Notes: a model not told the origin generated them from the letters alone. 64,000 nucleotides of DNA from Escherichia coli (GCF_024502345.1 NZ_JALDNN010000001.1); one strand, 5' to 3'. Counted from the first letter of the stretch, positions 1,007 through 3,177 are shown. Program-made: numbers and translations.

Positions 1007-2185
1007 ATGACTGCTGTAAGCCAAACCGAAACACGATCTTCTGCCAATTTTTCGCTCTTCCGCATCGCTTTTGCGGTTTTTCTCACCTACATGACCGTAG
1101 GGTTGCCGTTGCCGGTTATCCCGCTGTTTGTTCATCATGATCTGGGCTATGGCAATACCATGGTCGGCATTGCCGTCGGCATTCAGTTTCTGGCTACGGT
1201 GCTGACGCGTGGCTATGCCGGGCGACTGGCCGATCAATATGGCGCAAAACGTTCGGCGCTTCAGGGGATGTTAGCTTGTGGTCTGGCGGGGGGCGCGTTG
1301 CTGCTGGCGGCGATTTTGCCCGTCTCCGCACCGTTCAAATTTGCCCTGTTGGTCATCGGGCGTTTGATTCTTGGGTTTGGTGAAAGCCAGTTACTGACAG
1401 GCGCTCTGACCTGGGGATTAGGCATCGTAGGGCCAAAACACTCTGGCAAAGTAATGTCATGGAACGGAATGGCGATTTACGGTGCCCTCGCTGTTGGTGC
1501 ACCGCTTGGCCTGTTGATTCATAGCCATTACGGTTTTGCCGCACTGGCGATCACCACAATGGTATTACCCTTGCTGGCGTGGGCCTGTAACGACACAGTG
1601 CGCAAAGTACCGGCCCTGGCGGGAGAACGTCCATCGCTGTGGAGCGTTGTCGGACTTATCTGGAAACCAGGGTTAGGGCTGGCACTACAAGGCGTTGGTT
1701 TTGCGGTTATCGGGACTTTCGTTTCGCTCTACTTTGCCAGCAAAGGATGGGCGATGGCGGGCTTTACTCTTACCGCGTTTGGCGGCGCATTTGTCGTGAT
1801 GCGCGTCATGTTTGGCTGGATGCTGGACCGTTTTGGCGGCGTGAAAGTGGCGATCGTCTCTCTGCTTGTAGAAACGGTGGGCTTGTTGCTGCTCTGGCAA
1901 GCCCCAGGTGCGTGGGTCGCATTAGCGGGCGCGGCGTTAACCGGAGCCGGATGTTCGCTTATCTTTCCTGCGCTGGGCGTGGAGGTGGTTAAACGTGTCC
2001 CCTCACAAGTTCGCGGCACCGCACTGGGCGGTTACGCCGCGTTTCAGGATATCGCCCTCGGCGTCTCCGGGCCGCTGGCGGGAATGCTGGCGACCACGTT
2101 TGGTTACTCTTCGGTATTTCTTGCCGGGGCGATCTCTGCGGTGCTGGGAATTATTGTCACGATACTGTCATTTCGTCGGGGTTAA
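1007..2185 (+). CDS. yfcJ: MFS-family membrane transporter
   Basis: 392-aa ORF, hydrophobic throughout with about 12 predicted TM segments; position between fabB and flk. Confidence 0.8.
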
Positions 2186-3177
2186 CGAACCAGCCAGACC
2201 AGCATCAGGATAATCGCGACTAACAGTATCCACAGCGCGGGACGCGTTGCCATATTTTGCAACGTGTCCATCATCGGTGGAAAAGGATTAAGCAGCGGTT
2301 GCATATCACGCGGATCAATCCCTTTAACCCGCCGTTGATAAAGCTGATTAAGAATATCCTCGGCCTGGGCAGAAGAAAGCGATGATTGCGCAGAAAGGCC
2401 ATATTTTTGCTGGATATATGCCGATAACGCCGCCAGTTCACTGGCATCTAAAGGTTGTTTTAGCGCCATCTGTAGTGATTCCAGCGTCGGCGTATTTTGC
2501 TGGCTTAGCGTCTGACGCGCCTGCAGCCAGGTCACCAGATGGTTAAATAGTTTCGCTGGAATTAACTCGCCATCTTTCACCCCGGAAAGTTCCAGCATCG
2601 ATTGCCAGATCTGTTTGCTGGGTTCCCCCGTTGCCGCCGCAAGTTTGGTCACCAGCTGTTTGAGCGCATTGTGCTCTGCCGGTAATAGAGGACGATCGGT
2701 CGCCTCGCGCTGCTGCGGTTGCGGAATAACCATCTTCCCTTCCTGCAACAGGGTTAGAATGGTTTTTAATTGCTCCGGTGAGAGCTGATTCAGCGGCGTC
2801 TGACCAAAGTTATGACGGATATAATCCGTGACCGCCTGACGATTATTCCCCAGACGTAAATACTCCCCTAATTGCGCTAAAAGCTGGCGGGCAGAATGGC
2901 TTTTTTGCGCGGCCAGCAGACGTTGCGCCAGATTATGCTCAGCGGCAGGGAAGTGACGCGAAAGCAGCGGTGAATCTCCCGACAGACCAATATCGTGCCT
3001 GATACCCGCCCACAGTTCTGCTCTTTGCTGTTGCGTCAGTGAGGTCACTTTCGTCATTAAGCTTTCCAGCGAAGTACGTTGCTGACTGGATAAAGGCTGA
3101 TTGCCCGCGCCAGACGGCAGGTTATCTCCCTGACCTGGTGGTTGCCCAGGAGGAGGGCCGGAAATAGGTTGTATCAT
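2182..3177 (-). CDS. flk: flagellar regulator Flk (C-terminally membrane-anchored)
   Basis: 331-aa ORF with ATG at 3177; Pro/Gln-rich N-terminus and a single C-terminal hydrophobic anchor ([15 protein letters not shown]); convergent with yfcJ. Confidence 0.8.

Follow-up and report, generated by a model that had tools for sequence, protein, structure and literature searches.

The convergent genes yfcJ and flk of Escherichia coli end inside one another, with their stop codons interlocked in a GTTAAC palindrome. This arrangement raises the question of how transcripts of the two genes are ended, and whether the overlap has a function of its own. Both points were approached with a 64,000-nt stretch of E. 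coli DNA (GCF_024502345.1, NZ_JALDNN010000001.1), referred to here as the window, which starts in the fabB-yfcJ-flk-pdxB-usg-truA region. The first 50 kb of the window are collinear with NZ_CP109924.1, with 10 mismatches. From about position 53234 onward the window is no longer collinear with that sequence, and the strain from which NZ_CP109924.1 derives carries insertions resembling IS5 and IS630 near elaD and rbn.

The yfcJ and flk genes overlap by four nucleotides

The yfcJ gene (positions 1007-2185, plus strand) encodes an MFS transporter of 392 amino acids, as supported by the list of open reading frames (ORFs), the RefSeq annotation, and orthologues that are 78-98% identical. The flk gene (2182-3177, minus strand) encodes the tail-anchored flagellar regulator Flk ("Fluke") of 331 amino acids, as supported by the ORF list, RefSeq, and homologues of family PF27202. 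Read from the sequence, the 392 codons of yfcJ end with CGT CGG GGT TAA, the stop codon occupying 2183-2185, and the 331 codons of flk end with CTG GTT CGT TAA, with a stop codon that appears on the plus strand as TTA (2182-2184). The tetramer TTAA at 2182-2185 consequently belongs to both genes, one on each strand, and one of the four tetramers TTAA, TTAG, CTAA, and CTAG stands at the same position in all 31 aligned species. T2183 and A2184 are common to both stop codons. T2182 ends the last yfcJ codon, GGT, and pairs with the third base of the flk stop codon on the other strand; A2185 ends the yfcJ stop codon and pairs with the third base of CGT, the last flk codon. RefSeq gives identical ends in the collinear genome (yfcJ 3286 and flk 3283 in locus L001) and in locus L082, whose coordinates are those of the window (yfcJ 2185 and flk 2182). 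An earlier note on this DNA had described the two TAA codons as interlocked inside GTTAAC; sequence, ORF list, and RefSeq bear this out, and they agree equally with the gene names, strands, and stop positions given there and with the absence of intergenic DNA.

The yfcJ-flk region is present in 5,422 of 5,426 complete E. coli genomes. When a 41-nt sequence spanning the junction was used as a megablast query, at least 3,422 E. coli genomes were matched, a number that is a lower bound and silent on the remaining genomes, because the search needs an exact word of 28 nt. All matches listed were annotated as flk and yfcJ. On both sides of the junction the shared nucleotides lie behind sequence coding for a membrane segment: the C-terminus of YfcJ consists of a hydrophobic segment followed by a short basic tail, and the last ~20 codons of flk specify a C-terminal membrane anchor, likewise with a short basic tail. 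The membrane anchor of Flk has been documented experimentally (PMC13344023).

Overlaps of this type have been described as a class. Two genes on opposite strands can end in one of the tetramers CTAA, TTAA, CTAG, or TTAG (Lillo and Krakauer 2007, PMC2174442), collectively YTAR. The same study counted 1,890 convergent overlaps in 58 prokaryotes, 1,218 of them with a length of 5 nt or more, from which it follows that about 36% are 4 nt or shorter; the length distribution jumps at 4 nt, and E. coli contributes 58 convergent overlaps (PMC2174442). The yfcJ/flk pair lies on opposite strands with facing 3′ ends and an overlap of exactly 4 nt with the sequence TTAA. Its genes are real and their ends correct, as judged from homologous orthologue ends in the loci of 80 species and from the agreement with RefSeq. 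The pair is a textbook member of the YTAR tail-to-tail class, from which it does not differ in any respect. It is also already known: it is contained in public annotation, its class was described by 2007, and the pair itself appears in a 2025 catalogue of transcript overlaps. Five convergent gene pairs are present in the collinear part of the window, and yfcJ/flk is the only overlapping one, the gaps in the other four being 47, 32, 58, and 66 bp.

These results led us to consider it very probable that yfcJ/flk is an ordinary 4-nt tail-to-tail YTAR overlap between two unrelated, independently transcribed genes, without a dedicated function. The observations that weigh against this reading are that the overlap has been kept in a large clade and that overlapping transcripts are reproducibly detected; both are considered below.

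The overlap is retained in one clade and absent from other genera, which have spacers or inserted genes

An alignment of Flk homologues yielded 80 Enterobacteriaceae loci, one per species, in each of which both stop codons were located. These loci are the best 80 of 278 related ones, and the outgroups Klebsiella and Serratia are not among them. The 4-nt overlap was found in 30 of the 80 loci, comprising 6 of 6 Escherichia, 18 of 19 named Citrobacter, and 2 of 2 representatives of Salmonella subspecies; the remaining loci belong to Yokenella, to Intestinirhabdus, and to two or three isolates that are unnamed or carry a wrong label. One locus with the title Chryseobacterium sp. 18061 (L057) contains an enterobacterial flk-yfcJ region that hardly differs from the one in "Citrobacter sp. 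18056" (L060), and here the organism label is probably wrong or the assembly contaminated.

In the 31 sequences formed by the 30 loci and the window, the tetramer at the junction is TTAA in 16 cases, TTAG in 7, CTAA in 6, and CTAG in 2. All changes observed at the junction preserve both stop codons. As this group was chosen by having both stops in place, the YTAR pattern within it follows from the way the sequences were picked and offers no independent sign of selection. What is informative is that the entire clade has kept the arrangement and that neither C-terminus differs in length: the alignment of the 31 sequences, with 264 columns, is ungapped over ~130 nt on each side, from which it follows that both proteins keep the length of their C-termini.

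In other genera the two genes are separated. A spacer of 18-340 bp, in most cases 35-93 bp, was found in Enterobacter, Lelliottia, Leclercia, Huaxiibacter, Cedecea, Buttiauxella, and others, and REP-like palindromes often fill it. In loci within the range L029-L081 (L030, 4006-4077; L039, 4006-4089; L071, 4006-4095), the spacer of 35-93 bp consists largely of REP-like palindromes of the form GCCGGGTGGCG…CTTACCCGGCCTAC. Both proteins of the spacer-bearing Enterobacter, Leclercia, and Lelliottia end at the same residues as those of E. coli, and the insertion or loss of REP elements seems to toggle the junction between spacer and overlap. The orthologous junctions of these three genera resemble the known REP/BIME elements of convergent 3′ spacers, whereas E. 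coli has no such element at the flk-yfcJ junction and carries REP-like repeats elsewhere in the window. One such place, noticed by eye, is the region downstream of fabB at about 700-800, where repeated REP-like palindromes contain …GGATAAGACGCGCCAGCGTCGCATCCGAC… twice.

Larger distances of 1.5-2.3 kb between the two genes occur in Kosakonia, Phytobacter, Superficieibacter, and one strain of Citrobacter amalonaticus. Loci with inserted DNA are L017 (C. amalonaticus S646, 4006-6330), L034, L047, L052, L056, and L065-L079. Four inserts were inspected; an ORF for a PTS EIIC-like protein was seen in L017, where it is accompanied by a GntR-like regulator, and in L034 and L047, and an ORF for a 6-phospho-beta-glucosidase-like protein in L066. 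A second C. amalonaticus locus (L024) has kept the 4-nt overlap. In 17 loci yfcJ is absent within 3 kb of flk, and in Trabulsiella guamensis, which lacks yfcJ, flk faces fabB. The spacers and inserts of other genera indicate that the overlap is dispensable, though conserved in one clade. Its persistence in that clade could be explained by ordinary purifying selection on two C-termini with membrane segments: loss of either stop codon would lengthen a membrane-embedded C-terminus, and we infer that the arrangement persists for this reason and not through a function of the overlap.

Probable ending of the transcripts by Rho, with an embedded terminator as a doubtful addition

The earlier note had concluded that the junction offers no intergenic space for terminators. 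This is correct for intergenic terminators and does not extend to terminators in general, which can sit within the coding sequence of the partner (PMC2174442); the terminators of such convergent genes must in fact be located there, and about 20% of the E. coli genes in convergent overlaps have a predicted terminator inside the partner gene (PMC2174442). The accompanying claim that transcription of each gene must enter the other follows from the geometry and agrees with published RNA-seq data (PMC12288877). In the absence of a spacer, the 3′ end of each mRNA has to run on as a tail antisense to the last codons of the partner.

We searched for embedded terminators with a rule-based scan of the 200 nt downstream of each stop codon in 53 loci. 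Downstream of flk, no terminator-like site was found in these 200 nt in any of the 53 loci, the 30 overlapping ones included, and a scan of the E. coli region itself found none on the minus strand downstream of flk. Downstream of yfcJ, terminator-like sites were sporadic and not homologous; they were present in 4 of the 30 overlapping loci, with differing sequences. The only candidate at the E. coli junction is located at 2233-2269 (plus strand), downstream of the yfcJ stop codon and inside the 3′ coding region of flk, where terminator scan and folding revealed two mutually exclusive hairpins. The first has a 7-bp stem (2233-2249) followed by CCATATTTTG and is weakly terminator-like with a poor U-tract; the second has a stronger, 11-bp stem (2240-2250 with 2259-2269) and no U-tract.

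An intrinsic terminator specific to E. coli, formed either by the hairpin 2233-2249 with its T-rich tail or by the stem 2240-2269, might end yfcJ transcripts about 65-75 nt into flk. It would be compatible with the interpretation of the locus as an ordinary overlap, and the antisense overlap on the yfcJ side would then be short and fixed. The match in the scan, the 11-bp inverted repeat that is predicted to fold, the recurrence of the terminator-like site in a close relative (L007), and the share of E. coli convergent-overlap genes with predicted terminators inside the partner mentioned above speak for such a terminator. They are opposed by the poor quality of the U-tract CCATATTTTG and its absence behind the stronger stem, by the number of terminator-like sites in the region, 9 compared to 5.6 ± 2.3 in shuffled sequences, which makes single matches weak evidence, and by a fold z-score of only −1.7. 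Even among the clades of Escherichia the structure lacks conservation; across the 31 species, pairing in the two stems is kept in 54-64% of cells, with little compensatory change. We therefore regard an embedded yfcJ terminator as rather unlikely.

Four E. coli hairpins were considered as conserved RNA structures and rejected, namely those formed by 2161-2168/2223-2230, 2172-2176/2185-2189, 2240-2250/2259-2269, and 2233-2239/2243-2249, of which the first two bracket the junction. In the ungapped alignment of 31 species 41-64% of their cells pair, with few compensatory changes, and for three of the four helices pairing was little or no better than in slid controls. A promoter-like site at 2247-2274 (plus strand) was disregarded, as the count of such sites, 2 with 2.4 expected, was not above chance. 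Rfam gave no match at the gathering threshold in positions 1-10,000 of the window. Outside this part it identified three tandem copies of naRNA4 (CssrE; a nucleoid-associated RNA of the REP325 type) on the plus strand of the dedD-cvpA spacer (10168-10238, 10259-10329, and 10350-10420; 73-80 bits) and the nuoG RNA motif on the plus strand between nuoF and nuoG (41185-41227; 50 bits compared to a gathering score of 33).

With no intergenic DNA, a weak candidate on the plus strand only, and no conserved pairing, the junction does not have the makings of a bidirectional intrinsic terminator, for which a GC-rich hairpin between an A-tract and a U-tract would have to work on both strands. Bidirectional terminators and collision-driven termination have been described for convergent E. 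coli pairs whose polymerases meet near the gene boundary, as they would at yfcJ/flk (Ju et al. 2019, as cited in Wang et al., bioRxiv 10.1101/2022.10.23.513370). Those elements lie in an intergenic spacer and depend on a stem-loop of the nascent RNA that positions the collision, whereas yfcJ/flk has neither a spacer nor a conserved stem-loop.

As no conserved intrinsic terminator is embedded in the junction, it is most likely Rho that ends the tails, by acting on antisense RNA that is not translated. The obligatory 3′ extension of flk mRNA at 1722-2181 (minus strand), untranslated and antisense to yfcJ, contains no hairpin with a U-tract. The C/G ratio of the RNA downstream of flk is 1.2-1.5 in the first 120 nt and 1.3-1.9 at 180-460 nt, compared to a median of 1.0 in the window, where the 90th percentile is 1.5; it equals or exceeds the latter value for 280-440 nt. 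This C-rich RNA is compatible with Rho loading, a composition that by itself is no proof of Rho action. The RNA downstream of yfcJ has a C/G ratio of ~1 and is not C-rich, and Rho termination appears less well supported there. Rho would thus most plausibly end the tails on the flk side with its C-rich downstream RNA; on the yfcJ side, the weak lineage-specific hairpin at 2233-2269 may contribute in E. coli. Collisions between polymerases are possible, presumably occasional, and would be a minor contributor.

Farther along the path of flk transcripts, the scan marked a terminator-like hairpin at 915-938 (minus strand), upstream of yfcJ. A strong hairpin at about 821-846, AAAGGGAACC-CGAT-GGTTCCCTTT followed by a T-run, was noticed by eye and is absent from the list of the terminator scan; judged from its sequence, it is probably the terminator of fabB. 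Together these two hairpins would be the first such sites for flk read-through past all of yfcJ.

Overlapping transcripts do not require a regulatory function of the junction

The ExcludonFinder study of 2025 reported 165 convergent excludons that occur in at least 50% of 58 transcriptomes of strain MG1655, flk-yfcJ among them (PMC12288877). The pair is listed there by name, and it shares with other convergent excludons overlapping transcripts and a short distance between the genes, which in this case is zero. Convergent excludons regarded as regulatory units involve reciprocal repression and processing by RNase III, whereas the membership of flk-yfcJ derives from transcript overlap. The pair rpnB/yfcH, a second convergent pair of the window with a 47-bp spacer (18752-18798) that contains a GTTAAC at 18768, is likewise listed as an excludon (PMC12288877).

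If yfcJ/flk were a functional convergent excludon, the overlap without a terminator would have been selected, and transcription of one gene would repress the other, either because polymerases collide or because RNase III cuts the sense-antisense duplex, or for both reasons. Expression of the flagellar switch inhibitor Flk and of the transporter YfcJ would then be mutually exclusive. This view draws on the transcript overlap in at least half of the 58 transcriptomes (PMC12288877), on the overlap's being conserved in Escherichia, Salmonella, and Citrobacter, and on the absence of an efficient terminator that would limit read-through. However, the listing is based on read coverage only, no functional link between flk and yfcJ is known, and many genera have a spacer or inserted genes at this position; even within Citrobacter, one lineage broke the overlap with a 2.3-kb insertion. 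Collisions should moreover be rare, as yfcJ is weakly expressed: 163 normalised reads were reported for it, in a table where typical genes reach thousands (PMC10294691). This low expression suggests that regulatory interference is probably slight. A functional excludon is, in our judgment, unlikely, and under the interpretation as an ordinary overlap the overlapping RNA-seq transcripts would be a by-product of the junction geometry.

A PhoB box, TGTCACGATACTGTCATT, is located at 2155-2172 (plus strand), 10 nt upstream of the yfcJ stop codon. This box corresponds to a published intragenic PhoB ChIP-seq site designated "(yfcJ)" (MG1655 coordinate 2438961, ChIP score 8; PMC10294691). PhoB bound there in vivo under phosphate limitation might act as a roadblock to both converging polymerases at the terminator-less junction and make the pair a conditionally gated excludon. 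In that case the extent of mutual transcript invasion between flk and yfcJ would change, and in E. coli and E. albertii Flk would be tied to phosphate status. Among the 31 aligned sequences, both TGTCA half-sites are intact only in these two species and one close relative. The level of yfcJ RNA was unchanged in a phoB deletion (163 versus 187), and the authors of the ChIP-seq study classed such intragenic PhoB sites as transcriptionally inert (PMC10294691). We consider gating by PhoB very improbable.

The GTTAAC hexamer is an incidental product of the two stop codons

The palindrome at 2181-2186, which reads GTTAAC on both strands, is perfect over 6 nt and has its centre exactly on the junction, as might be expected of a site that functions in protein binding, as a target of restriction or modification, or in recombination. 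However, two TAA stop codons that are interlocked by 2 nt force the core TTAA, and extending the palindrome to 6 nt takes no more than complementary bases on either side, which occur with a probability of 1/4. The flanks vary outside Escherichia: GTTAAC was present in 7 of 7 Escherichia and in 0 of 24 other species with the same 4-nt overlap, whose hexamers at the junction are GTTAAG, GTTAGG, GCTAAA, CTTAGA, and others. The hexamer is also common, with 30 copies in the 64-kb window compared to 12.6 ± 3.5 in shuffled sequences. Being common in the window and not conserved at the junction, it was ruled out as a special site, and there is next to no chance that it functions as one of the sites named above. 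As far as the sequences tell, the palindrome is incidental and carries no information, its flanking G and C being specific to Escherichia. What looks like a striking palindrome at a gene junction is simply the product of two interlocked TAA stops.

An annotation artefact, in which one of the genes truly ends elsewhere and no real overlap exists, is hardly conceivable: we found no support for it, both ORFs end at homologous positions in all relatives, including those with a spacer, protein lengths are conserved, and the C-terminal anchor of Flk has been documented experimentally (PMC13344023).

Implications of the yfcJ/flk overlap

The overlap between yfcJ and flk matters little in itself. Among convergent overlaps of 4 nt, it stands as a clean and conserved example. 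Its regulatory consequences are probably small, in view of the weak expression of yfcJ and of the other genera that do without the overlap. A practical consequence concerns genetic work on yfcJ or flk, since a deletion or a tag at the 3′ end of either gene alters the last codons and the stop codon of the partner. The pair might serve as a natural test bed for how transcripts end without terminator DNA, be it by Rho, collision, or read-through, and it could also help to tell if the excludons in catalogues have a regulatory role or just reflect geometry.
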